A DNA stretch of 64,000 bases, from positions 24,329-88,328 of the forward strand of contig JACRNU010000054.1 of the NCBI GenBank assembly GCA_016234805.1. Reading direction: 5' to 3'. Numbering within the stretch: position 1 is the first letter of the stretch; every line of letters starts with the position of its first letter. Shown piece after piece: positions 4,914 to 63,990 of the stretch. A model generated the notes under the pieces. That model was not told the origin of the DNA. It ran no database searches and saw only the letters and a list, made by a program, of their open reading frames with translations. The translations under genes and the position numbers were made by a program. This stretch comes from Elusimicrobiota bacterium. GTDB lineage: Bacteria; Elusimicrobiota; Elusimicrobia; UBA1565; UBA9628.

Positions 4914-4970
4914 GCAGGTGCCAGGCTTGGACGCAAGTATGGAGCTCCGGTTCAAGCCTGGCACCTGTGC
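4914..4970. repeat. Hairpin repeat GGTGCCAGGCTTGG-N-CCAAGCCTGGCACC (family copy 1)
   Basis: 14-bp near-perfect inverted arms read directly from the sequence. The same stem sequence recurs at 5607-5660 and 61660-61712. Confidence 0.8.
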
Positions 4971-4979
4971 TCCGGCAAT

Positions 4980-5606
4980 ATGAAGAAGATCCGCGGCTTC
5001 AAGCTTTCGGTCCGGCCCAAGGAGGTCCACCGCCTCGCCAGGAAGGCGGGACTCGACCTCGCCCCTTTCGGCGTGGAGCCCCCTCCTGAAGGACGGCCCA
5101 CCGCGGTCTCCGCCGCCGGCGTGGCCGCCCTCTCCAGGGAGATCGACCCGGCTGTCAGGCTCCTGACCCCCGCGGTCCTCTACGAATCCTTCCCGGGCTC
5201 CACCGTCGCCGACGCGTCCATCAAGCTGCTCGCCCCCATCCCGGGCGTGGCCTTCAGCCTGGTCCTGGCCACGCTCGGCGAAAGCATCGGCGCGAAGAAG
5301 CGCGAGCTGGAGGGGAGCGATCCCCCGCGGGCCCGGTTGTGGGCCGTCATCTGCGAGAGCGCCCTGGCTGAGGCGGTGCGGTTCGCGTCCTCCCTCATCG
5401 AGACCGAGGCCGCGCTGGAGAACTGCGAGCTCAGTCCTCTCAACCCTTTGACCGGCAACGAGGCCCTGGCCGCCGCGCTCGACAGGCTGGATTGCTCCAA
5501 GATCGGTGTGAGCCTTGCAGACGACGGGCTGCGGCCCCCGGATTCGACGATCGTGACCCTGAGTTGGCTTTCGAAGTCCCGCGGACGCAACAAGCCGAAG
5601 GCTTGA
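4980..5606 (+). CDS. Hypothetical protein (208 aa), bracketed by two copies of the GGTGCCAGG hairpin
   Basis: An ORF with a plausible start (MKKIRGFKL) that fills the interval between secF and the acyltransferase gene. I recognise no domain; its coding status rests on ORF length and context only. Confidence 0.4.
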   Translation: MKKIRGFKLSVRPKEVHRLARKAGLDLAPFGVEPPPEGRPTAVSAAGVAALSREIDPAVRLLTPAVLYESFPGSTVADASIKLLAPIPGVAFSLVLATLGESIGAKKRELEGSDPPRARLWAVICESALAEAVRFASSLIETEAALENCELSPLNPLTGNEALAAALDRLDCSKIGVSLADDGLRPPDSTIVTLSWLSKSRGRNKPKA

Positions 5607-23887: not shown

Positions 23888-23949
23888 TGAAACGACGAAT
23901 CGTCCCCCACGATGCTCGCCTCCCCGCGGGGGAGGCTCGCGGCATATGA
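23887..23949 (+). promoter_or_regulatory. Micro-ORF (20 codons, [20 protein letters not shown]) spanning the CCTCCCCGCGGGGGAGG hairpin; stop/start overlaps on both sides (TGATG with the kdsB stop, ATGA with the pyrG start)
   Basis: Copy 2 of the coupling cassette. It shows both nucleotide-level and peptide-level similarity to 2471-2557. Confidence 0.6.
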
Positions 23950-31298: not shown

Positions 31299-31325
31299 GA
31301 TGGATAGAGGGCCTAAACCATAGGG
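31299..31325. repeat. 22-bp direct repeat GGGCCTAAACC(A)TAGGGCCTAT, left copy
   Basis: It recurs at 33553-33580 with one mismatch. The two copies bracket a 2.25-kb pseudopilin and Cys-rich-protein module. Confidence 0.75.
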
Positions 31326-31448
31326 CCTATAAGAGCTGCTCCGATTGGTCACCACGCCTGCCGCCGAGCAGCAACGGGCGCACACGGATTTTGCGAATTA
31401 TGCCGCACTTCCCATCAGATGTCGCTGGACCCCGCGAAGAACTTCAGG

Positions 31449-33552: not shown

Positions 33553-33580
33553 GAGGGGCCTAAACCCTAGGGCCTATTCG
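33553..33580. repeat. 22-bp direct repeat GGGCCTAAACC(C)TAGGGCCTAT, right copy
   Basis: Pairs with 31299-31325. Confidence 0.75.
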
Positions 33581-33599
33581 AGGAAAACTTATGTTCAGT

Positions 33600-51733: not shown

Positions 51734-53164
51734 GTGACGGCATCCAGCCCTGGGTCCCAACTAGGGGCCTGGACTCTCTACGGGTTCTCCGTCCTGGTAT
51801 TCCTCCCAAGCCTTTTCAACGGTTTCGTTCTCGACGACCTGTTCTATATCGCGCACAACCCGGTGCTCCAAGAGCCTGGGCAGTGGCCCAGGTTCCTCTA
51901 CGACCATTCGAGCCTGCTCTCCGAGAGCTCCCTTTCGAGGCTCATCTGGAGGCCCCTGCTGGGCTTGAGCTATGCCGTGAACCGGTCGGTCCTCGGTCCT
52001 GCCCCATTCTGGTTCCACTTGCACGACAGCCTCCTTCACGGAGCCAATACCCTGTTGGTTCTGGCCCTCCTGCGCCGCCTGGCCGGGCCTGGACCGCACT
52101 CCTGGGCCGGAGCCCTGCTTTTTTGCTGCCATCCGGTCCAGGCGCAGTCCGTGGCTTACGCGGGCGCCAGACCCGGCCTCCTGTCCCTTTTCTTCTGTCT
52201 GGTCTCGTTCCTGCTCTATGCCGGCGCTTCCGGGGGAACCGGGCCCGGAAGGGCGCGCTTGGCCCTGTCTGCGGGAGCATTCTGCCTGGGACTGTTGTCC
52301 AAGGAATCCACCCTGTTCCTCCTGCCTGTCCTGGCTGCTTTCGAGTGGGTCGAGCGGCCTGGTGCCGGAGACCGCGCTGCCTGGGGCCGACGGCTGATGG
52401 TCTTCGCCGCGGCAGGGACCCTCTATCTCTCGGCAAGGGCCTTGGTCCTGGGCATCGGGGCTCAGCGCGGTCCATGGGGCGGCGACTGGATGATGCATTT
52501 CCAACTCGCGTCGCACGGCCTGTTCAAGACAGTATCCCTGGCATTCTGGCCCAAGGGCTTGCGCGAGCCCTATGGCTTCATCCTCTCTCCCGGCTTCATG
52601 GCTGAATCCGTGCTCATGGCCTCTTGCCTGAGCCTGGCAGCAGGGCTTGCGGTCTGGGGGGTGTGGAAGCGCCGGTCCTGGGGCTTCGCCCTGTTCTGGG
52701 CTTTCGCGGGCCTGCTGCCGGTCTCCAACATCGTGCCTTTCGGCGCTCTGGCCGCTGACCGCTACCTCTACGGGCCCATGGCCGGGGTCAGCCTTCTTGT
52801 CGCCCTGGCATTGAAGGGCCGGCTCTTCGGATGGGTCAAGGGGAGCTGCCTGGTCCTGGCCGGCGTCATGGCTTTTGCCTGCGTGGAGGCTCAATTGCAA
52901 TGGCGCAGCGGGTTCGTCCTGGACCTTTCAGCGTGCGCCGCGGCTCCCAAGGACCCGTATCCGCCCCTGCGTCTGGCCACCCACTACCTGGAATGGAGGA
53001 TGTTCTCCAGGGCTGAGGAGCTTTCGGTCCGTGGTCTGGAGCCTCAAGCGCCCCCGGATGTGCGCAGGCTCGCGCTCAAGAGGCTGGCCGTGATCCGCAT
53101 GAGCGCCGCCGACCGCGCCAAGGCCGGCCAGGACCATCTTCTCAAAGCCTCGCTCCTCCAGTGA
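51734..53164 (+). CDS. TMTC-like GT-C/TPR membrane protein (paralog 3)
   Basis: N-terminus FNGFVLDDLFYIAHNPVLQEP...LIWRPLLGLSYAVN matches the other two paralogs. The C-terminal TPR region is shorter. Confidence 0.55.
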   Translation: MTASSPGSQLGAWTLYGFSVLVFLPSLFNGFVLDDLFYIAHNPVLQEPGQWPRFLYDHSSLLSESSLSRLIWRPLLGLSYAVNRSVLGPAPFWFHLHDSLLHGANTLLVLALLRRLAGPGPHSWAGALLFCCHPVQAQSVAYAGARPGLLSLFFCLVSFLLYAGASGGTGPGRARLALSAGAFCLGLLSKESTLFLLPVLAAFEWVERPGAGDRAAWGRRLMVFAAAGTLYLSARALVLGIGAQRGPWGGDWMMHFQLASHGLFKTVSLAFWPKGLREPYGFILSPGFMAESVLMASCLSLAAGLAVWGVWKRRSWGFALFWAFAGLLPVSNIVPFGALAADRYLYGPMAGVSLLVALALKGRLFGWVKGSCLVLAGVMAFACVEAQLQWRSGFVLDLSACAAAPKDPYPPLRLATHYLEWRMFSRAEELSVRGLEPQAPPDVRRLALKRLAVIRMSAADRAKAGQDHLLKASLLQ

Positions 53165-53226
53165 GCTCCTTCGGCGCCAGCGCCTATCTTGATTTTCAGA
53201 TTCGGCTCTGGATAAAGGGTGGATTG

Positions 53227-53270
53227 TTTGTGTGCAACTTGTGAATTCCATATAATGACTGTGAACTTGG
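53227..53270 (+). promoter_or_regulatory. Promoter region of the two-component operon: TTGTGT-17 bp-TATAAT, with direct repeats TGTGCAACTTG / TGTGAACTTG
   Basis: The -35-like and -10 hexamers with 17-bp spacing were read directly. The 18-mer TGTGTGCAACTTGTGAAT recurs (17/18) at 58584-58609, upstream of the pilin gene. Confidence 0.5.
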
Positions 53271-53302
53271 GTACCCGTCGAAGGCGGGCTGGCGAGGAAA
53301 TC

Positions 53303-53995
53303 ATGCCGAAGATCCTGATGGTCGAAGACGAGGCGTGCATCATAGAAGCCGTGGAGAAGACCCTCGCCTCGGCCGGGGGTTTCTGCCTGGTCGCGGTGAA
53401 GGATCCCGACAGGGCCGTGTCCGCGGCCATCAGCGAGAAGCCCGACCTCATCCTCCTCGACATCCGGCTGCCCGGATCCGACGGCAGGCACATCCTGAAA
53501 GCCCTCAAGGAGAACGCCGCCACGAGGGTGGTCCCGGTCATCTTCCTGACCGGCATGTCCGGCGAGGGCGACAAGGTCATCGGCCTCAACATGGGCGCGG
53601 ACGACTATGTGGTCAAGCCCTTCGGGGCCATGGAGCTCATGGCCCGGATCCACGCGGTCCTGCGGCGCGTCCGGCCGCACTCCAGCCTCGATTCCGTCGA
53701 TATCGGGGGGCTCAAGCTCGACGCCGGAAGCCGCGGAGCGAGCTTCAAAGGCAAGCCTTTGCGGCTTCAGCCCAAGGAGTTCGAGATCCTTTTCCTGCTG
53801 GCCTCCGAGCCCGGACGGGCCCATACCCGCGGCTGGCTCATCGACAACACCTCCTCCTACGGCATGCCCGTGAACACCAGGAGCCTGGACACGCACATCA
53901 AGAACATCCGCAGGAAACTCGGGACAGGCGCCTGCCTCATCGAGACCGTTCCGAAAGTCGGCTACCGGTTCGTCTCGCCCCATGAGCGTCTTTAG
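53303..53995 (+). CDS. OmpR-family response regulator (receiver + winged-helix DNA-binding domain)
   Basis: Motifs ILMVEDEACI...DLILLDIRLPGSDG...IFLTGMS...KPF and a C-terminal trans_reg_C domain (LRLQPKEFEILFLLASEPGRAHTRGWLI...VGYRF). Confidence 0.85.
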   Translation: MPKILMVEDEACIIEAVEKTLASAGGFCLVAVKDPDRAVSAAISEKPDLILLDIRLPGSDGRHILKALKENAATRVVPVIFLTGMSGEGDKVIGLNMGADDYVVKPFGAMELMARIHAVLRRVRPHSSLDSVDIGGLKLDAGSRGASFKGKPLRLQPKEFEILFLLASEPGRAHTRGWLIDNTSSYGMPVNTRSLDTHIKNIRRKLGTGACLIETVPKVGYRFVSPHERL

Positions 53996-55289
53996 GGCTT
54001 CGGCCGCTTCCAAGACCTTGGAGGCGGCACTAGGCCGGTTCATCCGGCCGTCGGCCGGCTCCGCCCTGGACGAGCGGCGCACCACCTATTTCGCGTTCCA
54101 GGGCCTGCTCATGGCGGTCCTGCTGCTCATCTTCCTCACCCATCGTCCTGACGCGTCCTCCTGGCTTCCCCGATTCGCTTTCCTGATGACCTTCCTGAGC
54201 GGGTCGCTCGTGGCCCTGCGCCTGACCCCTGCTCCACTGCTGGCGACCTGGAGGTTCCAGGTCGGGCTCTTCCTGGGGGACGCGGTCCTGGCCACCGTGG
54301 CCCTGGCCTGGGCCAAGCCCCTCGCTGAGCTCTACCTGATCTTCCTCCTCATCATCTTCGGGGCAGCCCTGACCCGAAGCCTCGGCCAGAGCCTGATCAT
54401 CGCCACGGTGGTTTCCTTCCTCTACCTGGCCGCGGGCTGGAGGCCGAACCGCGGCCTGCCGCACGACGCCGGGTTCTGGGTCCAGTTCATGTTCCTGTGG
54501 GTGCTCTCCGCGCTCCTGGCCGTGCTTTCGCGCGACGTGGCGCGGGCCCAGGCCTTCCGGGAGCGCAAGCTGCGCGACCAGGTCGTGGAGGCTGAGCGCC
54601 TATCGAGCCTGGGCCGCCTCTCCGCCGAGGTGGCCCATCGCATCAAGGGGCCTCTGACCACCATCATGGTCAACGCGGACCTGCTGGCCGCGGAGCTCTC
54701 GGGCTCGAAGAAGGTGGTCGCGGACCTCCGCCAGATCCAGGAATCGGCGCGCCACTGCAAGGAGATCCTCAAGTCCCTGCTGGACCTCGGCCGCATCGAG
54801 GAGATGGACCGCATTCCCATGGACCTGGGCAGGGCCGCTGCCTCGGCCGTGGAGTCCATCGAGGCCCAGGCCCGGAAAAAGGGCGTCCGCCTCCGAACAG
54901 AGGGCCTCGAAGGCGAATTCCCCATGCTGGGGGACCCGGCGCTCCTCCGCGAGGCTGTCTGCGCCGTGCTCCAGAACGCGCTGGAGTCCGCGGCCAAGGG
55001 CGGCCGGGTCGCGCTCGCGCTCAAGCGGCGGCTCGGCGCGCTGGAGTGGGTGGCCATGGCCGCTGGAGGGTGCTATGTCCTGGAGGTTTCGGATGACGGG
55101 CACGGCATCGCTTCCGATATCATGAGCCGCATCTTCCAGCCCTTCTTCACCACCCGCAAGGGGGGCTCCGGCCTCGGCCTCTCCTCTGCCCTGCGCATCC
55201 TGCAGAAGCACGGCGGGAGCATCGAGGTCGAGAGCGACGGCCCGGGCAGGGGAGCGGTCTTCAGCCTGATCCTGCCCCGGCCGACCTAA
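53982..55289 (+). CDS. Membrane sensor histidine kinase
   Basis: About 6 N-terminal TM segments, an H-box LSAEVAHRIKGPLTTI and HATPase_c (GHGIASDIMSRIFQPFFTTRKGGSGLGLS). Confidence 0.8.
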   Translation: MSVFRASAASKTLEAALGRFIRPSAGSALDERRTTYFAFQGLLMAVLLLIFLTHRPDASSWLPRFAFLMTFLSGSLVALRLTPAPLLATWRFQVGLFLGDAVLATVALAWAKPLAELYLIFLLIIFGAALTRSLGQSLIIATVVSFLYLAAGWRPNRGLPHDAGFWVQFMFLWVLSALLAVLSRDVARAQAFRERKLRDQVVEAERLSSLGRLSAEVAHRIKGPLTTIMVNADLLAAELSGSKKVVADLRQIQESARHCKEILKSLLDLGRIEEMDRIPMDLGRAAASAVESIEAQARKKGVRLRTEGLEGEFPMLGDPALLREAVCAVLQNALESAAKGGRVALALKRRLGALEWVAMAAGGCYVLEVSDDGHGIASDIMSRIFQPFFTTRKGGSGLGLSSALRILQKHGGSIEVESDGPGRGAVFSLILPRPT

Positions 55290-55400
55290 CGACCATAGGG
55301 CCGGCCGGGACCGTCGGCCTCCGGCCTGGACCCGGCCCCGGCCGGCCTGACGGCCCCTATGGCCGGCCGGGACGGTCGGCCTCCGGCCTGGACCCCGCCC
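55290..55400. repeat. Tandem ~54-bp direct repeat (2 copies), GC-rich, between convergent genes
   Basis: GGCCGGCCGGGACCGTCGGCCTCCGGCCTGGACCCGGCCCCGGCCGGCCTGACGGCC repeated with 4 mismatches. Confidence 0.7.
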
Positions 55401-56184
55401 CGGCCAGCCTGACCCCGCTCCGGGCCAGGCACTCGCGGACCCGCGGGCTGGTCAGGGCCAGGAACTCGGCGTAGGAATGATGGGTCGAAGTCGGGCCGTG
55501 TTCGGCCTTGGCTTCCGGGTCCGCGGTGGGGTGCAGGTAGATCTCCGTCAACCCGCCTGGAAGGCGGGGGATGAGCCAGAGCAGGTAGTCCTCGGTCATC
55601 ATGCCGGACCGCAGAAGGCCCAGGGTCCGGTCCGGCACGGTGAGCCCGGCTTGGGCGGCCGAGCGTCTCATCCAGGCCCCGAGAGCCCCGAAGACGCAGC
55701 CGAGAGCGAGCGCGGCCGCGGCGCCGCGGCCGCCGAACCCGGCCCTGAGAAGGACCTCCCCCCCGGTCAAGCGCACCCGCGGGATGCCGTGCCGCAGGGC
55801 CGCCCGGACGACCATGGGGAAAACAGTGGGGTGGACGTGCGCGTTGAGGTGGCTGTCGAGGTGCGTGGGCTTGATGCCGAAGGAGAGGCACAGCCGCACC
55901 TGGCTCTCGATCTCGCTTTCGATCCCCCGGCCCCTGTTCAGGAAGGAGGCCAGGCCCCAGGCCGGCGCCGACCCGGAGCAGAGCTCGAGGTGCACCCCGA
56001 CCCCGAGCCCAGGATTGGCGCGTGCGACGCGGACCGCGTCGCGGACCGCGCTCCCGCGGACCATGAGGCTTGCGAATCCGAGGACCCCGTCCCGGTGGGC
56101 CCGCTCGACCGCGTCATTGAGTCCCGGGGAGCCCCCGAAGTCGTCCGCGCTGACGATGAGCGTGGCCGCGCCGGCCTGGCTCAA
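55357..56184 (-). CDS. hpnK: YdjC/ChbG-family carbohydrate deacetylase (HpnK-like)
   Basis: Motifs LIVSADDFGGSPGLNDAVERAHRDGVLGFASLMV and VGVHLEL. It overlaps (ATGA) the pseudopilin-like gene upstream. Confidence 0.55.
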   Translation of the reverse strand: MSQAGAATLIVSADDFGGSPGLNDAVERAHRDGVLGFASLMVRGSAVRDAVRVARANPGLGVGVHLELCSGSAPAWGLASFLNRGRGIESEIESQVRLCLSFGIKPTHLDSHLNAHVHPTVFPMVVRAALRHGIPRVRLTGGEVLLRAGFGGRGAAAALALGCVFGALGAWMRRSAAQAGLTVPDRTLGLLRSGMMTEDYLLWLIPRLPGGLTEIYLHPTADPEAKAEHGPTSTHHSYAEFLALTSPRVRECLARSGVRLAGAGSRPEADRPGRP

Positions 56185-56570
56185 GGGGTCGTTCCAGGGA
56201 GGGGCTGGGTGAACGAAGCCGTCACCAGGCAGGGGCCTAACGTATCGTCGGCGGTGACGGTCGGGTAAAAGGTATCGGCGGGGGTGGCGCTGCAGGTGCA
56301 GGAGCAGACGCCGGGCGTGCCCGTGCAGTCGTAGGAGATCGCGCCGGTCCCCGTCAGGTTCGCGTCCGAGCAGACCGCCTGCTGTTCGCTCCAGAAGGAG
56401 AGCAGGAGGGAGAAGGCCATTTCGTCGTATTTCTCCCCCTTGTTCCCGTAAGCCGTCCGGTGGATGAGCTGGTACTGCATGAGCACGATGCTCATCATGC
56501 CCGCGGCCAGCATGGCCATGATCGCGCCCGTGATCAGGACGTGGACCATCACCGACCCTCGCTGGTTCAT
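56181..56570 (-). CDS. GspK-like / minor pseudopilin-like Cys-rich small protein
   Basis: Hydrophobic N-terminal helix RGSVMVHVLITGAIMAMLAAGMMSIVLM with 8 Cys in the C-terminal half. It is the last gene of the pilin operon. Confidence 0.35.
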   Translation of the reverse strand: MNQRGSVMVHVLITGAIMAMLAAGMMSIVLMQYQLIHRTAYGNKGEKYDEMAFSLLLSFWSEQQAVCSDANLTGTGAISYDCTGTPGVCSCTCSATPADTFYPTVTADDTLGPCLVTASFTQPLPGTTP

Positions 56571-56577
56571 GTGGTTC

Positions 56578-57234
56578 TCAATCCGACCCGAAGTACTGCC
56601 TGTTCGACCGGAGGAAGGTGTCGACCTTGAGGCTGACGGGGACCGGGATGGTGGCCGCGGCGCCCGTGGCCGGGCGGGTGCCGCTGCCGACCGCGAAATG
56701 CATCTCGATGCCGTCCCCGCGGTTCCTGAAGATGGGCGGCGACGAGGTGAGGTCCTCGTCGCGATAGTGGAAATTCCTGACCAGCACCGTGGTGTTCCCC
56801 CCGAGGATGCAGCCGCCCCCGTTAGGGATGCTGGCCGGGCAATTGAGGCCCGGTCCGACGACCGCGATGCGCAGAAGGGCGGGCATGCCCCCGCCGATGT
56901 CGGGGCTCCGGCAGTAGTAGAACGCGGTGACGTTCAAGCTCGTGTTGAGGCGGCCCTCACCCAGGCTGGTGAATTGCAGGGGCGAGAAATTGACGCACCC
57001 GCCGAGGCCGTCTCCCGTGGCGCCGTGGGCGGGGACGTTGATGAACGAGGCTTCCTCGATCTCCTGGCTCATCTGCTCAAGGGCCATGATGGTCCATCCG
57101 CTCACCTCCCCCTTGAGGCTCGTGTCCACGTGGCTCCTCAGGAGGGAGGCGAACACGGTCATGAGGGCGACGAGGACCGCGGAGCTCAGGCTCAGGGCAA
57201 GGAGCAGCTCGATGAGGGTGAACCCCTGGCGCAA
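56578..57234 (-). CDS. Minor pseudopilin with a G|FTLIELLLAL prepilin cleavage site; its 5' end and leader lie inside the 57-bp tandem repeat array
   Basis: ...LAPLRQG|FTLIELLLALSLSSAVLVALMTV. There is no ATG. The candidate start is TTG at 57234 (MRQG|FTLIE) or an upstream CTG. The same frame stays open through all four repeat units. Confidence 0.55.
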   Translation of the reverse strand: MRQGFTLIELLLALSLSSAVLVALMTVFASLLRSHVDTSLKGEVSGWTIMALEQMSQEIEEASFINVPAHGATGDGLGGCVNFSPLQFTSLGEGRLNTSLNVTAFYYCRSPDIGGGMPALLRIAVVGPGLNCPASIPNGGGCILGGNTTVLVRNFHYRDEDLTSSPPIFRNRGDGIEMHFAVGSGTRPATGAAATIPVPVSLKVDTFLRSNRQYFGSD

Positions 57235-57472
57235 GGGCGCCAGGTCCCCGGAGGGCAGATGTCCTCCGCTCCCGGAGGGGGCCCGGCGCAAGGGCGCCAG
57301 GTCCCCGGAGGGCAGATGTCCTCCGCTCCCGGAGGGGGCCCGGCGCAAGGGCGCCAGGTCCCCGGAGGGCAGATGTCCTCCGCTCCCGGAGGGGGCCCGG
57401 CGCGGGGGCCCGGCGCAAGGGCGCCAGGTCCCCGGAGGGCAGATGTCCTCCGCTCCCGGAGGGGGCCCGGCG
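57225..57472. repeat. Tandem array of four 57-bp repeat units (canonical family sequence), the fourth with an 11-bp insertion
   Basis: CCTGGCGCAAGGGCGCCAGGTCCCCGGAGGGCAGATGTCCTCCGCTCCCGGAGGGGGC x4. The unit is 19 codons, so every frame repeats (e.g. RRAPSGSGGHLPSGDLAPL on the minus strand). There are no spacers, so this is not a CRISPR array. Confidence 0.85.
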
Positions 57473-57473
57473 T

Positions 57474-57986
57474 TTACGGTTCGGTCCAGTCGACATAGAC
57501 CTCCACTCGAGGGATCTGCGCGCCGGAAAGGCCTCCTGCTCCGAAAGGGTGCATCTGGGTGACGACGTAGCGCATGGTGGCGTTGTAGGGCGGGCCGCTG
57601 AACCAGATGGGGAGCATCCCGGTGATGGTGTGCGTGCCCAGCGCGAGGGCGTTGGCGGCGCCCATGCTGTCGGTGATGGTCGCGGCGTCGTACCCGTCGT
57701 TCGGGGCTTTGGCGCCGTTGATGGACCAGTTGGTGGAGGCGGAGGTCCCGCTGGACGGCCCGCGGAAGCCGATGTCGATGGGGGCCTGCGTGGTATCGCC
57801 GGAGACGTAGCCCTTGAGCTTCTCCGACAGCTGGCGCGAAACCTGGTTCGCGACGAGGCGGCGCATGGAGCGTCCCGAGCCCTGGCGGGCGGTGATGGCC
57901 ACGCTGAAGACAGAAGACGTGATGACCGCCACGAGCATCATGGCGATGGTGACCTCGAGGAAAGTCGAACCGCGTTCCTTGTCCAT
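57474..57986 (-). CDS. Minor pseudopilin (GspI/J-like)
   Basis: MDKERG|STFLEVTIAMMLVAVITS has a prepilin-type leader with Glu at +5. Its stop abuts the repeat array. Confidence 0.6.
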   Translation of the reverse strand: MDKERGSTFLEVTIAMMLVAVITSSVFSVAITARQGSGRSMRRLVANQVSRQLSEKLKGYVSGDTTQAPIDIGFRGPSSGTSASTNWSINGAKAPNDGYDAATITDSMGAANALALGTHTITGMLPIWFSGPPYNATMRYVVTQMHPFGAGGLSGAQIPRVEVYVDWTEP

Positions 57987-58001
57987 GGTCCGGCTCCCGG
58001 C

Positions 58002-58517
58002 TTATAATCCCGTCACCGAGGGCGGGTTCGTTCCGATCGCTTCGATCCCGCCGTTGGTGTCCACCGCGAAGCCCCAGGTGTTGTAATCCCCGGACGTGCT
58101 TTTTCGCGTCGCGCAGGCCACCCAATTCCGGCTGGAAAAGGTCTTGCCGCCGCAGGATGACGTCACGCTCCCGTTGGCCGCGTCGAACCGGTACTTCTCG
58201 CCGTCCCAATTCTGCGAGGATATGTATTTGCACTTGACCAGGTCGCAGCCGTCGGCCGCCCCGCCCGTGGGACAGGCGGTCCCGTTGCAGGAGCTCGTCA
58301 GCTGGCCCGCCCGCAAGGTGGTCTGGTTGAGGTCCATGCTCGCCATGCGGTTGGCGGCGGCGAGCGTGCGCACCGTGGCGATGGCATTGTCGGCCCTGGT
58401 CGATTCCATGGCCCTCAGGTATTGGGGGATGCCGTACGCCGCGAGGATGCCGATGAGAGTGACCACGACCACGAGCTCGATGAGGGTGAATCCGGCGGGC
58501 GAGGGTCTTCGCGCCAT
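58002..58517 (-). CDS. Major type IV pilin / GspG-like pseudopilin
   Basis: MARRPSPAG|FTLIELVVVVTLIGILAAYGIPQY is a classic class-III signal. C-terminal Cys pairs (CNGTACPTGGAADGCDLVKC...SSCGGKTFSSRNWVAC) resemble type IVa pilin disulfide loops. The start was taken at the ATG at 58517. Confidence 0.8.
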   Translation of the reverse strand: MARRPSPAGFTLIELVVVVTLIGILAAYGIPQYLRAMESTRADNAIATVRTLAAANRMASMDLNQTTLRAGQLTSSCNGTACPTGGAADGCDLVKCKYISSQNWDGEKYRFDAANGSVTSSCGGKTFSSRNWVACATRKSTSGDYNTWGFAVDTNGGIEAIGTNPPSVTGL

Positions 58518-58583
58518 GTTCCTATTCCTCCGGCCGTCCCCTTCATAGTATGCCTCCGGCATCTGTGCGACATGAGGGCGGCC

Positions 58584-58609
58584 TGTGTGCAAGTTGTGAA
58601 TCATTTCGC
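58584..58609. promoter_or_regulatory. 18-mer TGTGTGCAAGTTGTGAAT in the pilin upstream region (shared with the two-component operon promoter)
   Basis: 17/18 identity to 53229-53246. It lies between the gspF stop and the pilin start. Confidence 0.45.
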
Positions 58610-59827
58610 CCCCAGGGAGGACATCTTGAAGATGGGCAGGAACACGGCCAGCACGATGGTGCCGACGATGAGGCCGATGCCGACGACCATGATGGGCTCG
58701 ATGATGGCCGTGAACCTCCGGGTGAACTGCTCGATCTGCTCGCGGTAGAAGCCCGAGAGGGTCACGAGCATCTCGGGGAGCTTGCCGGACTCTTCTCCCA
58801 TGAACATCATCTCGGTCACCAGCGGAGGGAGGACGCCGGTCTTCTTGAACGCTCCGGAGATGGATTTGCCGCTCGCCACGTCGTTGCGAACCATGCGCAG
58901 GAAGCGCTGGAACATGACGTTGGTGGCGAAGACCCCCTCGAGCACGGTGATGGTGTTGAGGATGCTCACGCCGCTCTCGATGAGGGCCGACATGGTCGTG
59001 AGCAGGCGCTCGACGAGGATGTTCATGATGAACTGGCCGAAGAAGGGGACCTTGAAGGTGAGGGACCATTTCGTCACGTTGCCGGCTTCCGTCGAGGTGT
59101 AGGCCCTCCAGACGAACCCCGAGCCGACGAGGACGAACACGAGGGCCGCGAAGTGGTGCACCATGATGTCCGAGATCAGGACGATGGCCTTGGTCAGGGG
59201 CGGGAGCTGGACTCCGAACTGCTTGAAGATGTCGGAGAAGACCGGCACGATCTTCACGATGAAGAAGGTGAGCACGCCCATGGAGATGAAGAACAGGATG
59301 CCCGGGTACGCCAGGGCGGTGATGACCTTGGCCTTGAGTTCCGACTGGGCCGCGAGGTAGGCGCCGATCTGCTTGAGGGATTTCGGGAGCTGGCCGCCCA
59401 TCTCTCCGGCCTGCACCAGGGAGACCCAGAGGGTGTCGAAGGCCTTGGGGTGCTTCTCGAGCGCCTTGTACAGGGCGGTCCCGCTGGCCACGTCCTTCGT
59501 GACCTGGCCGACCGCGATCTGCAGGCCCTTGGAGCTCGAGTGCTCGCCCAGGAGCGAGAGGGCGCGCACCAGGGGCACGCCGCCGTTGAGGAGGGTGGCC
59601 AGCTGCTCCGCGAAGAAGACGAGGTCGCGCTCGGCGACCCCGGCGGAGCTGACCGCCGCGCCCTTGCCCGACAGCGAGGAGCGGGCGCTCTTGTCGGACG
59701 AGATCGACAGGATGAAGTAGCCCTTGCCCTGGAGGACGCCGATCGCGTCGTTCTCGTCGTTGGCCTCGAGCGAGCCGGAGATGGTCTCTCCCTTGCTGTC
59801 CTGGACCGTGTACGCGAAGCGTGCCAT
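58601..59827 (-). CDS. gspF: Type II secretion / type IV pilus inner-membrane platform protein (GspF/PilC family)
   Basis: 408 aa with two T2SSF repeats (LATLLNGGVPLVRALSLL..., LTTMSALIESGVSILNTITVL...) and 3 TM segments. Confidence 0.9.
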   Translation of the reverse strand: MARFAYTVQDSKGETISGSLEANDENDAIGVLQGKGYFILSISSDKSARSSLSGKGAAVSSAGVAERDLVFFAEQLATLLNGGVPLVRALSLLGEHSSSKGLQIAVGQVTKDVASGTALYKALEKHPKAFDTLWVSLVQAGEMGGQLPKSLKQIGAYLAAQSELKAKVITALAYPGILFFISMGVLTFFIVKIVPVFSDIFKQFGVQLPPLTKAIVLISDIMVHHFAALVFVLVGSGFVWRAYTSTEAGNVTKWSLTFKVPFFGQFIMNILVERLLTTMSALIESGVSILNTITVLEGVFATNVMFQRFLRMVRNDVASGKSISGAFKKTGVLPPLVTEMMFMGEESGKLPEMLVTLSGFYREQIEQFTRRFTAIIEPIMVVGIGLIVGTIVLAVFLPIFKMSSLGAK

Positions 59828-59834
59828 GGTTCTC

Positions 59835-61583
59835 CTAGTCCGCCAACGTGATGGACATGATCTCTTCGACCGTGGTGAGGCCCCGGATGACTTTGCGCCA
59901 GCCGCTCGCGCGCAGGCTCAGCTTGCCGAGCTTGTCCGCCACGGAGCGCAGGCGGGTGAGGTCGCCGCCGTACTTGTAGATGATATCCTTCATCTCCCGC
60001 TCCATGGGGTAGACCTCGAGGATGGCTTTGCGGCCTCCGTAGCCGGTGCGCGCGCACTTGTCGCAGCCCTTCTCTTTGTAGAACATGAGCGTGTCGAGGT
60101 CGGGCTGGTCCTCGGGCTTGAGCATCGCCTGCTCGACGACCATCTTGGCCTCGTCGGCCTCGGGCTTGTAGGGCTTCTTGCAGAGGGGGCAGAGCACGCG
60201 CACGAGGCGCTGCGCCGCGGCGAGTATGAGGCTGCCCGAGAGGAGGAACGGCTCGATGCCGAGGTCGATGAGGCGCACCACGGTCGAGAGGGCGTCGTTG
60301 GTGTGCAGGGTGGAGAGCACGAGGTGGCCGGTGAGGGCCGCGCGCAGGCAGGTCTGGGCGGTCTCCTGGTCGCGCACCTCTCCGACCAGGATGACGTCCG
60401 GGTCCTGCCGCAGGAAGGAGCGCAGAGCGGCCGCGAAGGTGAGCCCGATGGCGGCGCGCACCTGGACCTGGTTGATGCCCTCGAGCTTGATTTCGACGGG
60501 GTCTTCGATGGTCATGAAGTTGAGCTCGGGGGTCTTGATGGTGTTGAGGACCGTGTTGAGGGTGGTGGTCTTGCCCGATCCGGTCGGGCCGGTCAGGAAG
60601 ATGAGCCCGTGCGGCATCGCCGCGCACTTGAGGAAGTCCTCCTTCTGCTCGGGCTCGAGGCCGATCTTGTCGATGTTGAGCTCGACCGCCCCCTTGTCGA
60701 GCAGGCGCATGACCAGCTTCTCGCCGTAGACGGTGGGGCAGATGCTGACGCGCAGGTCGATGATCCTGTTCTGGATCTTCATCGAGAAGGTGCCGTCCTG
60801 GGGCAGGCGCCGCTCCGCGATGTCGAGCTTGGAGAGGATCTTGAACCTGGACACGACCGGGCTGAAGAGGGACTTCGGCGGCGGCATGCGCTCGTAGAGA
60901 CAGCCGTCGATGCGGAAGCGCAGCATGACGCGCTCGTCGTAGCACTCGAGGTGGATGTCCGAGCACCTCTCGGCCACGGCCTGCTTGAGGATGGCGTTGA
61001 CGAGCGCGACCGGGTGCGCGTCCTGGCCGCCGCCGGAGGTGTCCTTGTCGAGGTCGAGCTTCACGTCGGCGTCCGGCATCTCCTCGGCCGCCTCGGTCGT
61101 GGCCGACTGCTTGTCCATCGTCTTCTCGATGATCTCGCGTCCCCCGGCCTGGTAGAACTCGTCGATGGCCTTGATGATCTGGGTCTTCGTCGCGACGAAG
61201 GGCTGGACCTCCCGGCTGGTGAGGAGCTTGAGGTTGTCCATCATGACCATGTTGTCGGGGTTGACCACGGCCACGGCGATGACCCCTTCGTCGAGGAACA
61301 GGGGGAGGACCAGGTTGTCCCGGGCGAAGGACTCGGTGATGAGCTTCTCGAGGCCCTGGCCCTTCTCGGCCTTGAGGATCTTGTTCTCCTTGGAGGCGTA
61401 GGGGACCCCGATCTGCTTGGACATCGCGACCGCGATGTCCTCTTCGGTCGCGAACCCCAGCTTGATGACCGCTTCGGCGAACTGACACCGCGCCTGCTGC
61501 GCGGTCTTGAGGGCTCTCGAGTGCTGCTCCTCGTTGAGGACATTGCCCTGAAGCAGTATCTGGTCCAAGGTCAGCTTCTGCAT
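59835..61583 (-). CDS. gspE: Type II secretion / type IV pilus assembly ATPase (GspE/PilB family) with an N-terminal N1E/MshEN-like domain
   Basis: Walker A LIFLTGPTGSGKTTTL, Asp box, Walker B, His box and a tetracysteine motif (CPLCKKPY...CDKCARTGY). The N-terminal domain is paralogous to the C-terminus of the 41148-42326 protein. Confidence 0.9.
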   Translation of the reverse strand: MQKLTLDQILLQGNVLNEEQHSRALKTAQQARCQFAEAVIKLGFATEEDIAVAMSKQIGVPYASKENKILKAEKGQGLEKLITESFARDNLVLPLFLDEGVIAVAVVNPDNMVMMDNLKLLTSREVQPFVATKTQIIKAIDEFYQAGGREIIEKTMDKQSATTEAAEEMPDADVKLDLDKDTSGGGQDAHPVALVNAILKQAVAERCSDIHLECYDERVMLRFRIDGCLYERMPPPKSLFSPVVSRFKILSKLDIAERRLPQDGTFSMKIQNRIIDLRVSICPTVYGEKLVMRLLDKGAVELNIDKIGLEPEQKEDFLKCAAMPHGLIFLTGPTGSGKTTTLNTVLNTIKTPELNFMTIEDPVEIKLEGINQVQVRAAIGLTFAAALRSFLRQDPDVILVGEVRDQETAQTCLRAALTGHLVLSTLHTNDALSTVVRLIDLGIEPFLLSGSLILAAAQRLVRVLCPLCKKPYKPEADEAKMVVEQAMLKPEDQPDLDTLMFYKEKGCDKCARTGYGGRKAILEVYPMEREMKDIIYKYGGDLTRLRSVADKLGKLSLRASGWRKVIRGLTTVEEIMSITLAD

Positions 61584-61659: not shown

Positions 61660-61712
61660 GGTGCCTGGCTTGGGCCTGACCAAGTCACCCCGGTTCAAGC
61701 CTGGCACCCGGG
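61660..61712. repeat. Hairpin repeat GGTGCCTGGCTTGG-N-CAAGCCTGGCACC (family copy 3) between gspD and gspE
   Basis: Same arms as 4914-4970 and 5607-5660. Confidence 0.75.
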
Positions 61713-61723
61713 ACATCGTACGG

Positions 61724-63412
61724 CTAGTCGCCGACGATCGTAGGCGTGATGAAGATGACCAGGTCGGAGTTCTTCCTGCGGGTGCTGCTCGAGGTGAACA
61801 GCCACCCGATGAGAGGGATGTAGCCGAGGAACGGGACCTTGCGTACCACCTTGTTCTCGGTGGATTGCAGAAGTCCGCCGAGCACCAGGGTCTGCCCGTT
61901 CTTGACCCGGACCAGGGTGGAGGCCCCCCTGGTGATCGGGTCGAAGATGCGCTTGGCCGAGGAGGAGATGGCGGACTCCTGAGCGTCCGTGAAGGAGGGT
62001 TGGACGAGCATGGTGATGTAGCCCTCCTTGTTGATCTGGGGAGTGACCTTCAGGATAAGCCCGGTCGTGACGCGCTCCACCGTGACGGAGGCCGTGCCCA
62101 GGCCGGAGCCCGAGGACGCGCTCTGCTGTTGGGTGGCCACGGCCGCGTTCCGAGCAATCTGGATGATGGCCGGCTTGTTGTTGAGGGTGAGCACCTTGGG
62201 CTTGCCGAGGAAGCGTGCCTCGGAACGGCTGACCAGGGCCCTAAGCACGACCTTGAGCATGGTGAGGTCGAAGATGCCGTTGGTCAGGGCTCCAGTGCCC
62301 GGGACCGTGACCGGGAAGGGAGAGGAGGTCTCAGCGGCGGCTTGGGACGTCCCTGTGGCTTCGCCATCGGCTCTCGCGACGCTCCCGGTGGTGAACGGGT
62401 CGAAGAAATGCGTGTTGCCCATCTTATTTGGGAGGTTGAGAGGGAACGAGACGTCGCGCTTTCCCGCGGTGAAGCTCGCGAGCTCGCCTCCCGCGCCGCC
62501 CCACTCGAAGCCCAGCTCCCGGGCGCGGTCCGAGTTGATCTCCACGATCTGCGCCTCGATCATGACCTGCGGGGTCTTCTTGTCGAGCTCGGCGATGATC
62601 TGCTCGACCTGGGGGAAGGACTCCGGGATGTCCGTGACGATGATCGAGTTGGTCCGAGGCTCGATCGCGATCGAGCCATTGGTCTTGCTGAGCACGCTCT
62701 GGATGACCTTGACGATCGCGACCTCTCCCCCGCCGCCGGTCGAGCCTCCGCCCGCAAGACTGGCGACGCTCGACACCGGCGTGATGGAGGCTTGCTCGGA
62801 CTCGGCGCTGCCCAGGGCGATGAGAGGGACATAGGCCAGGGTGTAGATGCGGGTGATCACGGGCTCGGCGGCCTTGGAGCGCGGGGCGATGACGAAGGTG
62901 TTGCTCTTGCCGATCTGCTGGTAGGTCAGGCCCTTGATCTCGAGCAGGATCTGCAGGGCCTCGCGCACGGTGACGTTCTGCAGGAAGGCCGTGATCTGCT
63001 TGGTCTCCAGCCCTTCGGTGATGATGAAGTTGACCTTGGACTGGGCGGAGATGGTGTCGAGGAAGGTCGCCAAAGGCGCCCCTTTCACGCGGACCGTGAC
63101 GCGCGTCTCGAGCGGATTGAGCGGCGAGGCCGGGGCGGCCTTCGACGGCGCGGCCGCTCCGATCTGGATGCCGCCGACCGCGGGACGGGCGACGGCTTCG
63201 GGCTCGGCGCCCGGCGGCGGTCCCTCGTCGGTGGGGACGCCCAGGGGGCCGGCCTCCGACGCCGGGGAAGCCTGCGTCCCCTTGAACTCGGGGTTGGCCA
63301 CGGGCTCCTCGCGCCGCCTCTGCGCGAACCCCGGGCCGGCCGAGGAAAGGATGATCTGGACAGCGATGGTGATCGCGCTGATGCGTTTCGCGATGCTCTT
63401 GATTGTCATCAT
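61724..63412 (-). CDS. gspD: Secretin (GspD/PilQ family outer-membrane channel)
   Basis: Signal peptide MMTIKSIAKRISAITIAVQII, N-domains and the C-terminal secretin domain (...VRVKNGQTLVLGGLLQSTENKVVRKVPFLGYIPLIGWLF...VIFITPTIV). The start was taken at the ATG at 63412. Confidence 0.85.
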   Translation of the reverse strand: MMTIKSIAKRISAITIAVQIILSSAGPGFAQRRREEPVANPEFKGTQASPASEAGPLGVPTDEGPPPGAEPEAVARPAVGGIQIGAAAPSKAAPASPLNPLETRVTVRVKGAPLATFLDTISAQSKVNFIITEGLETKQITAFLQNVTVREALQILLEIKGLTYQQIGKSNTFVIAPRSKAAEPVITRIYTLAYVPLIALGSAESEQASITPVSSVASLAGGGSTGGGGEVAIVKVIQSVLSKTNGSIAIEPRTNSIIVTDIPESFPQVEQIIAELDKKTPQVMIEAQIVEINSDRARELGFEWGGAGGELASFTAGKRDVSFPLNLPNKMGNTHFFDPFTTGSVARADGEATGTSQAAAETSSPFPVTVPGTGALTNGIFDLTMLKVVLRALVSRSEARFLGKPKVLTLNNKPAIIQIARNAAVATQQQSASSGSGLGTASVTVERVTTGLILKVTPQINKEGYITMLVQPSFTDAQESAISSSAKRIFDPITRGASTLVRVKNGQTLVLGGLLQSTENKVVRKVPFLGYIPLIGWLFTSSSTRRKNSDLVIFITPTIVGD

Positions 63413-63438
63413 GATGTCTCCCTTGGTGCCGCCGTCCG

Positions 63439-63990
63439 TCACTGCATGCGCTTCAAGAATGCCTTGCCCTTGTGCGTGAAAGTCACTCCTGTCTGGGAGA
63501 TCTTCAGGACCTTGATCCCCGAGTTCCCGATCCACTCGCCTTCGCTGTACATGTCGTTGTTGATGATGGCTTTGTTGCCTTCCGGCGTGGTCACGATGCC
63601 CTGCAGGCTGAGGGTCTGCTCGACGGGCTTGTCTCGCTGGACCTTGGCCCGGAGCGCCTGCTCTTCGACCTCTTTGCGTTTGATGAGCTTCTCGAGCTCC
63701 TCCTGTTCGAGGAGGAACTGGTCGTAGGGGGAAAGCAGGGGATCGCGCCAATCCACGGCCACGAGGTCCGCGGTGCTCACCGCGATTTCCGGGGCCTGCG
63801 GCGGGGCCGGCGTCGCCAGGGACGCGGTCGAGGCCGGAGGCCGAGCGTCCCCGCCGCCCTCAGGCATGGCGTTGGCGGACGGGGGCGCGGGGGTCACGGC
63901 GCCGGAGGCGTCGACCGGGGCCGGGTCGGACGGGGCGGCCGCGTCCACCACGGCGGCCGCTGTCTGGGAGGCGGTCTCCGTGCTGACCAC
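63439..63990 (-). CDS. Ala/Pro-rich protein with a PilP/GspC-like C-terminal beta domain; possibly 5'-truncated by the window edge
   Basis: The C-terminal ~70 aa (LQGIVTTPEGNKAIINNDMYSEGEWIGNSGIKVLKISQTGVTFTHKGKAF) resemble secretin-binding pilot domains. The listed ORF reaches to within 10 nt of the window end. Confidence 0.35.
   Translation of the reverse strand: MVSTETASQTAAAVVDAAAPSDPAPVDASGAVTPAPPSANAMPEGGGDARPPASTASLATPAPPQAPEIAVSTADLVAVDWRDPLLSPYDQFLLEQEELEKLIKRKEVEEQALRAKVQRDKPVEQTLSLQGIVTTPEGNKAIINNDMYSEGEWIGNSGIKVLKISQTGVTFTHKGKAFLKRMQ

Follow-up and report, generated by a model that had tools for sequence, protein, structure and literature searches.

The pho box recognized by PhoB in E. 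coli is built of direct repeats with an 11-bp period and a TGTCA half-site. Two-component control of pilin genes has been described in Pseudomonas, Geobacter, Kingella and others, in which PilS-PilR acts on pilA beside the type IV pilus genes; the kinase PilS has six transmembrane segments, lacks a periplasmic domain and senses pilin within the membrane (PMC6058289). In Pseudomonas, the two-component system FimS-AlgR is reported to control the fimU-pilVWXY1E minor-pilin operon (PMC5979040). We describe here a 64,000-nucleotide stretch of DNA from an Elusimicrobiota bacterium (contig JACRNU010000054.1, positions 24,329 to 88,328; the whole stretch is hereafter termed the window) which carries two copies of an 18-bp sequence, one upstream of an operon encoding an OmpR/PhoB-family response regulator and a histidine kinase, and the other between gspF and a prepilin gene. 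It is likely that this sequence is an operator, present at the regulator and pilin promoters and bound by the adjacent OmpR/PhoB-type regulator, which would control both its own operon and the pilin gene.

Read on the + strand, the two copies, TGTGTGCAACTTGTGAAT (copy 1) and TGTGTGCAAGTTGTGAAT (copy 2), differ solely at the central base (C/G), in agreement with the original prediction that they differ at one position. Copy 1 lies where it had been placed, at 53229-53246; copy 2, which had been assigned to 58588-58605, is in fact located 4 nt further left. In the predicted direction of action, the two features are as follows.

53229-53246, + strand: copy 1 of the 18-mer, operator core at the regulator promoter (top matrix match, 31.7 bits)
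58584-58601, - strand: copy 2 of the 18-mer, predicted operator at the pilin promoter (second-best matrix match, 25.3 bits)

The match between the copies had been considered very unlikely to arise by chance. As a raw statistic this was overstated: there are 133 clusters of 17/18 pairs in the GC-rich window, Markov-shuffled intergenic segments contain 0.43 such pairs on average, and the chance expectation of 0.02 for the 18-mer pair is a post hoc figure. The 17/18 match by itself is weak evidence. What makes it non-random is that the sites are conserved in orthologous loci and that a matrix trained without the window recovers them. A chance match, for which the abundance of such pairs in the window and in shuffled DNA would speak, is refuted by these comparative data, as both sites stand at orthologous positions and are the sole two window matches of the independently trained matrix; we give it virtually no weight.

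As an exact-sequence look-up of the window regulator gave no match, homologues were used instead. Orthologous loci, with regulators 60-88% identical to that of the window, were collected by exact-protein look-up (L001-L006) and by genome scan (L007-L017); the remaining 69 loci of the genome scan, which contain unrelated OmpR-family regulators, served as control DNA. In an alignment of 14 orthologous regulator-upstream regions (A1), the only invariant blocks are GTGAATT, TT.T situated 11 bp upstream, and TATA.T. The consensus at the regulator promoter is TTGTG-N6-TTGTGAATTC-N1-3-TATAAT, and the operator consists of two, sometimes three or four, direct repeats of the form TTGTG-N6-TTGTGAAT with an 11-bp period. 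Of the 17 orthologs, 14 have the motif overlapping the promoter of the regulator gene itself, and L001 (TGTGTTCAAGTTGTGAAT) and L002 (CGTGTTCAAGTTGTGAAT) retain, at the same place, the copy situated between gspF and the pilin gene.

The matrix was built from 30 sites in related Elusimicrobia, the window sites being excluded. When it was run on the window, the two copies were followed by a next match of 2.9 bits; the best score in 20 random windows was 17.7 bits, and that in 1.06 Mb of control DNA was 19.3 bits. Along 296 kb of Elusimicrobia loci, every match of at least 14 bits is located at a regulator or a pilin promoter; a single match of 12.4 bits, in L012, falls elsewhere. From this sequence comparison we conclude that the 18-mer is the predicted core of a cis-regulatory operator conserved across Elusimicrobia. 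A generic repeat spread over unrelated intergenic sites, the outcome that the original prediction had named as fatal to it, was rejected within the DNA scanned (the window and the Elusimicrobia loci): strong matches in the scanned loci are confined to regulator and pilin promoters, and the window holds no third copy of the 18-mer with up to 4 mismatches. No Rfam family was found anywhere in the window, so that the 18-mer is not part of a known RNA element.

At the regulator promoter, copy 1 read in the TGTG register forms two 11-bp direct repeats, TGTGTGCAACT (53229-39) and TGTGAATTCCA (53240-50). Around it lie the following elements.

53218-53228, + strand: GGTGGATTGTT, degenerate distal third repeat, from direct reading, in a putative 11-bp register
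53251-53256, + strand: TATAAT, perfect -10 box of the operon for regulator and kinase (invariant as TATA.T in 14 orthologs)
53260-53269, + strand: TGTGAACTTG, formerly proposed as a third half-site, downstream of the -10 box in a leader specific to the window

The promoter TTGTGT-17-TATAAT that had been proposed to overlap copy 1 is present, its -35 box (53228-33) lying inside the operator and separated from TATAAT by a 17-nt spacer. This -35 box matches TTGACA at just 3/6 positions, and a standard sigma-70 scan returned nothing at this site or at the pilin site. The proposed direct-repeat array also stands as far as the 11-bp repeats are concerned, tandem direct repeats with a 10-11 bp period being those expected of an OmpR/PhoB-family operator. 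Its third unit had been misplaced: TGTGAACTTG is absent from all 13 other orthologous regions of alignment A1, and the real third unit is the upstream, degenerate GGTGGATTGTT. The counterpart of the latter in relatives is TGTGGGCGATT or TGTGTTCGGTT, and a third repeat stands in register in L001, L002 and L004 (for instance TGTGGGCGATT TGTGTGCGAGT TGTGAATTCC).

In most relatives TATAAT lies 5-9 nt from the regulator start codon, which implies that the regulator mRNA would be leaderless in them. The window has at 53257-53302 a 46-nt leader that is unique to it and contains a GAGGAA Shine-Dalgarno sequence. Two other types of site were considered for the motif and discarded. A CRP/FNR-type palindrome would pair TGTGA with an inverted TCACA, which is absent, only CAA-N-TTG being symmetric; for a sigma-54 promoter, direct reading of the complementary strand shows TTGCA preceded by TGA or GAA instead of GG.

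At the pilin promoter, copy 2 is inverted relative to the gene. Read in the pilin direction it is ATTCACAACTTGCACACA, at about -61 to -44, and the motif in that direction takes the form ATTCACAA-N4-CNCACA. Between copy 2 and the pilin gene there are two further features.

58562-58583, - strand: TCTGTGCGACA (58562-72) and TGAGGGCGGCC (58573-83), 11-bp units in register by direct reading, covering the pilin -35 region
58547-58552, - strand: CATACT, pilin -10 box (in relatives TATACT or TATGCT, with T-A..CT unchanged throughout alignment A2)

Copy 2 had been located in the 83-bp gap between gspF and the pilin gene. This holds for the spacer proper (58518-58600); the proximal end of the copy touches the gspF stop codon, to which base 58601 already belongs. 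The units TCTGTGCGACA and TGAGGGCGGCC are possible weaker repeats, to which an operator function may be ascribed from their sequence; CTGTGCRAC is partly conserved in L001. Of 13 promoters, 12 have a distance of 49 bp from the motif start to the -10 box (TATACT/TACACT-like), and the remaining one has 50 bp; this spacing is common to divergent type A pilin genes and to the gspF-adjacent type B pilin gene of the window, L001 and L002. At the -35 position these promoters have TCATGT (as in the window), ACACAT or similar sequences and thus no usable -35 box. Direct reading of the - strand of 58518-58600 revealed no sigma-54 element (TGGCAC-N5-TTGC, GG-N10-GC). A terminator scan found nothing at either operator site and none behind gspF. 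The gspE-gspF genes carry their own promoter-like site, TTGAAC-17-TATACT, without the motif.

Comparison of the relatives shows how the two copies may have come about. In ten loci (L001, L002, L004-L007, L011 and L013-L015) a type A pilin gene of 135-161 amino acids (aa) is divergent from the regulator gene and shares with it a common intergenic region. The ancestral unit is a back-to-back arrangement in which a single operator separates the pilin gene from the regulator-kinase genes, and the divergent pilin gene was deleted in the window lineage. The window has no type A pilin gene, and a TPR-like gene ends at 53164. In the segment from 53165 to 53228, all that is left of the old pilin promoter is its operator-proximal part, TCTGGATAAAGGGTGG. 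The comparison suggests that the type A gene was lost by a deletion, one end of which lay close to the former -10 box. In the more distant L011 and L015, the type B pilin gene lies behind a consensus TTGACA-17-TATCAT promoter without the motif, and in L004 it starts 3 bp after gspF. It follows that the operator copy at the type B gene is a lineage-specific acquisition. In L006 (9290-9470) and L014 (about 916-1010) the type A pilin gene and its operator have been duplicated in tandem; the duplication keeps a vestigial regulator -10 box (CTAAATTAC) without a regulator gene following.

Over a length of about 60 nt, the type B pilin promoters of L001, L002 and the window are similar to those of the divergent pilin genes. 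This likeness, which suggests a common origin, together with the fact that TTGTGT-17-TATAAT does overlap copy 1, could be explained if copy 1 were a mere core promoter (-35 box plus spacer) and copy 2 a relic without function, left by duplication or recombination of a promoter fragment. We regard this explanation as very improbable. The -35 box agrees with the consensus at only half of its positions; copy 2 has no -10 box on the + strand and has nonetheless been kept in three genomes while the flanking intergenic bases vary; its spacing to the pilin -10 box is the almost invariant one given above; and the motif is also found at pilin genes that have no downstream regulator gene.

The link between motif and regulator was analyzed in an independent sample of 79 metagenome loci, for which resemblance to the type A pilin was the sole criterion. 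Of 93 distinct pilin upstream regions (13.9 kb), 26 contain the exact core CACA-N7-CACA, compared with 10 matches in 771 kb of background. Where an OmpR-type regulator gene is adjacent, 21 of 29 regions contain the exact core, against 5 of 62 where it is not (Fisher p = 7e-10, although the pilin-selected loci are phylogenetically related and p-values of this kind overstate their independence). If one mismatch is allowed, the figures are 25/29 and 10/62.

A second group of loci (L128, L143, L147, L150, L153, L162 and L163) has kinase, regulator and pilin genes on one strand, with regulators 35-37% identical to that of the window. Its pilin -10 box is preceded by three (T)TCACA repeats with an 11-bp period (shown for L128, L143, L150, L153, L162 and L163). 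The recognition-helix signature DTHIKN is found in 17/17, 16/17 and 8/9 regulators of three sets that cover both regulator clades, and in 0 of 70 control OmpR-family regulators, most of which have DVH(V/I)RS. A near-identical helix, DSHIKN, is present in 14 Acinetobacter controls (L051, L053, L056, L060 and others) that are 35-38% identical to the window regulator. The coincidence of the same half-site and the same recognition helix in different gene orders is the strongest indirect argument that the regulator reads the motif.

In a further set of loci (L124, L131-L133, L136, L137, L139, L140, L142, L144, L145, L149, L151, L152, L154, L156 and L159) a tRNA gene precedes the type A pilin gene by 40-130 nt, and neither the motif nor an adjacent regulator gene is present. 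The tRNA was confirmed as tRNA-Lys(UUU) by ARAGORN in L131, L136 and L149, and assigned by sequence similarity alone in the others. In this group, transcription from the tRNA promoter may extend into the pilin gene.

Several observations weigh against the proposal that the linked regulator binds the operator. At some pilin promoters that carry the motif there is no regulator gene in the vicinity (L093, L096 and L129), a situation expected for a trans-acting factor that fits any pilin-specific factor equally well, and the core is missing from four regulator-adjacent promoters (L112, L115, L117 and L146). With respect to the pilin gene, the repeats face away from the promoter, which is not the case in a classical pho box; at the regulator promoter, the best-conserved repeat pair is separated from the -10 box by 1-3 bp instead of about 10 bp. 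The motif scan of this genome covers 64 kb, and there may be a larger or unrelated regulon. To these points the relatedness of the pilin-selected loci has to be added, and the case for the regulator-operator pair is comparative throughout.

Taking into account the regulator-less loci, the motif could be a real element of the pilin promoter that is bound by an unlinked factor (another transcription factor, an alternative sigma factor or an UP-like contact), the regulator being merely co-located; its link to the motif is drawn from sequence, and the kinase-regulator pair could act on other targets. We consider this unlikely, if less so than a functionless relic. Direct repeats with an 11-bp period are the hallmark of winged-helix dimers of the OmpR/PhoB type, the motif goes together with an adjacent regulator gene and overlaps the regulator's own promoter in most orthologs, and two clades that share about 36% identity and differ in gene order adjoin the same half-site, both with the rare DTHIKN helix. 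The claim of the original prediction that the regulator autoregulates and also controls pilin expression is supported by conservation, the 11-bp repeats, the 49-bp phasing, the linkage to the regulator gene and DTHIKN, all of which are consistent with an operator read by the adjacent regulator.

The gene context assumed for the two sites, that is, a response regulator/kinase operon on one side and gspF followed by a pilin gene on the other, was borne out by Pfam annotation. The genes are as follows.

53303-53995, + strand: OmpR/PhoB-family response regulator (Pfam PF00072 Response_reg, E = 1e-21; PF00486 Trans_reg_C, E = 5e-18)
53982-55289, + strand: histidine kinase (HisKA and HATPase_c, HisKA from residue 210)
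58002-58517, - strand: first prepilin/pseudopilin gene, type B (Pfam N_methyl; N-terminus AGFTLIELVVVV)
58601-59827, - strand: gspF (T2SSF)
59835-61583, - strand: gspE (T2SSE and MshEN), upstream of the pilin gene
61724-63751, - strand: PilQ/GspD-like secretin (NCBIfam)

The regulator combines a receiver domain (Asp53) with a winged-helix domain whose recognition helix is RSLDTHIKNIRRKL, the Response_reg plus Trans_reg_C composition that defines the OmpR/PhoB family. It is 100% identical to a protein of an Elusimicrobia metagenome-assembled genome, and hundreds of homologues with 60-88% identity exist in Elusimicrobia. It scores below the cut-off of every named NCBIfam equivalog, the best being PhoB (TIGR02154, 186.3 against 296.2 bits); its closest relatives of solved structure are BaeR, MtrA, RegX3 and PrrA. 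In public annotation such homologues are named 'PhoP / alkaline phosphatase synthesis regulator', a label that is probably wrong. The kinase gene overlaps the regulator gene by 14 nt, the two forming one operon. Its product has six hydrophobic segments (residues 37-183) and no periplasmic domain.

On the - strand, the secretin gene, gspE and gspF are followed by the 83-bp spacer and by three prepilin-type genes (N_methyl in all three). An ATPase, a platform protein, a secretin and prepilins with the methylation motif identify this as a type IV filament cluster (type II secretion/type IV pilus-like). The first prepilin gene probably encodes the major pilin; the NCBIfam GspG and PilA models match its product only at the N-terminus. 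Perfect tandem repeats with 100% identity (57 bp x 3.1 and 70 bp x 2) occupy 57228-57472, at the 5' end of the third pseudopilin gene. As assembled, the ATG of this gene at 57496 is out of frame, and removal of one 70-bp copy yields a 282-aa open reading frame (ORF) whose leader has three 19-aa repeats (APSGSGGHLPSGDLAPLRR). Either the frameshift is genuine, possibly a case of phase variation, or it is an artefact of the assembly.

Upon these data, we infer binding by the regulator, the sign of the regulation and the signal sensed. The ligand of the operator would most likely be the phosphorylated OmpR/PhoB-family regulator encoded alongside, binding head-to-tail. Once bound, it would probably recruit RNA polymerase and activate pilin transcription, recruitment being proposed because the pilin promoters lack a usable -35 box; the second operator-plus-promoter copy would drive the first pilin gene behind gspF. 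At the promoter of the regulator itself, the operator fills the -35 box and the spacer, directly against TATAAT, and its occupation would feed back on regulator and kinase expression. As the promoters are placed back to back and the polymerase footprints must overlap, promoter competition or autorepression is the simplest reading and the one that we favour. Alternatively, feedback could be positive, as in phoBR, through the distal repeat pair, whose distance from TATAAT is like that of a pho box. Since the core repeat pair lies so close to the -10 box, the autoregulation may be of either sign.

A further-reaching model, which we put forward tentatively and consider doubtful, is that kinase and regulator are a functional analogue of PilS-PilR on an OmpR-type chassis and constitute a phylum-wide switch for pilin homeostasis. 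The six-transmembrane kinase would sense the membrane pool of pilin, and the regulator would toggle two overlapping, back-to-back promoters. With the operator unbound, polymerase would use TATAAT and produce the (mostly leaderless) regulator-kinase mRNA; with the operator bound, the regulator would occlude TATAAT and recruit polymerase to the -35-less pilin promoter 49 bp away. Such a switch would have its own recognition code, made up of the DTHIKN helix and the TGTGA half-site.

Other features of the window were recorded. The 19-mer CCGGTTCAAGCCTGGCACC is present on the + strand at 4945-4963, upstream of a gene at 4980, and at 61688-61706, between the secretin gene and gspE; it contains TGGCAC, and a sigma-54 -12 element does not follow. 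A second intergenic motif, GGGCCTAAACC(A/C)TAGGGCCTAT, occurs at 31309-31335 and 33556-33582 (89% identity over 27 nt, with an internal GGGCCTA direct repeat) and may be another regulator site. The GC-rich palindrome CCTCCCCGCGGGGGAGG, found at intergenic positions 2499-2550 and 23915-23940 as well as in L004 (9070-9130) and in L015 (upstream of the pilin gene at 2052), looks like a terminator or a REP-type hairpin. The 3.4-kb segment 40317-43751 has a G+C content of 0.57-0.59, compared with about 0.67, no ORF with the high third-position G+C typical of genes in the genome, and no match in Rfam; the segment could be of foreign origin or non-coding.

Hardly any Elusimicrobia have been cultured; they have many pilin genes, on whose regulation a literature search found no paper. 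In its mechanism, the gene switch at the pilin promoter is conventional, consisting of a regulator next to its target and an autoregulated divergent promoter. The locus offers a defined module: a consensus for the operator, a promoter of rigid geometry, a regulator candidate marked by a diagnostic recognition helix, and a kinase that may act as an intramembrane sensor. The motif can be used for regulon prediction in metagenome-assembled genomes, and the module lends itself naturally to comparison with the sigma-54-based control of pilin by PilS-PilR.

With FimS-AlgR, the locus shares the dedication of a two-component system to a pilin operon. AlgR is a regulator of the LytTR family with different binding sites, and it has no sequence relationship to the window regulator beyond the receiver domain. 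The likeness to PilS-PilR goes further: here too a two-component system adjoins type IV pilus genes, with pilin genes in divergent promoter regions, and the kinase has the six-segment topology of PilS. The latter is an analogy of topology, no sequence homology of the kinase to the PilS membrane domain being detected with Pfam. PilR is an NtrC-type activator of sigma-54 promoters, whereas the window regulator has only Response_reg and Trans_reg_C, without AAA+, and the pilin promoter has a sigma-70-type TATACT -10 box in place of GG-N10-GC. Membership in the PilS-PilR system was rejected for want of the AAA+ domain and of the sigma-54 promoter, despite the kinase topology.

The nearest parallel for the operator is the pho box. 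The regulator has the two-domain organization of the OmpR/PhoB family, with PhoB as its best NCBIfam match; nevertheless, the score given above rules it out as a PhoB equivalog, as does that of the kinase as PhoR (phoR_proteo, 77 against a cut-off of 334 bits). In the annotated part of the window, which comprises the genes around the two sites, neither pst nor pho genes were found. As in the Pho system, a good -10 box without a -35 box characterizes the target promoters, and the regulator's own operon carries the operator box, pointing to autoregulation. Both elements are 11-bp direct repeats with TGT, extended to TGTCA in the pho box and to TGTGA here. At the regulator promoter the orientation fits that of a pho box, but the element abuts the -10 box (1-3 bp) instead of lying about 10 bp upstream; at the pilin gene it is inverted and centred near -52, with its core at -61 to -44, and its targets are pilin genes.

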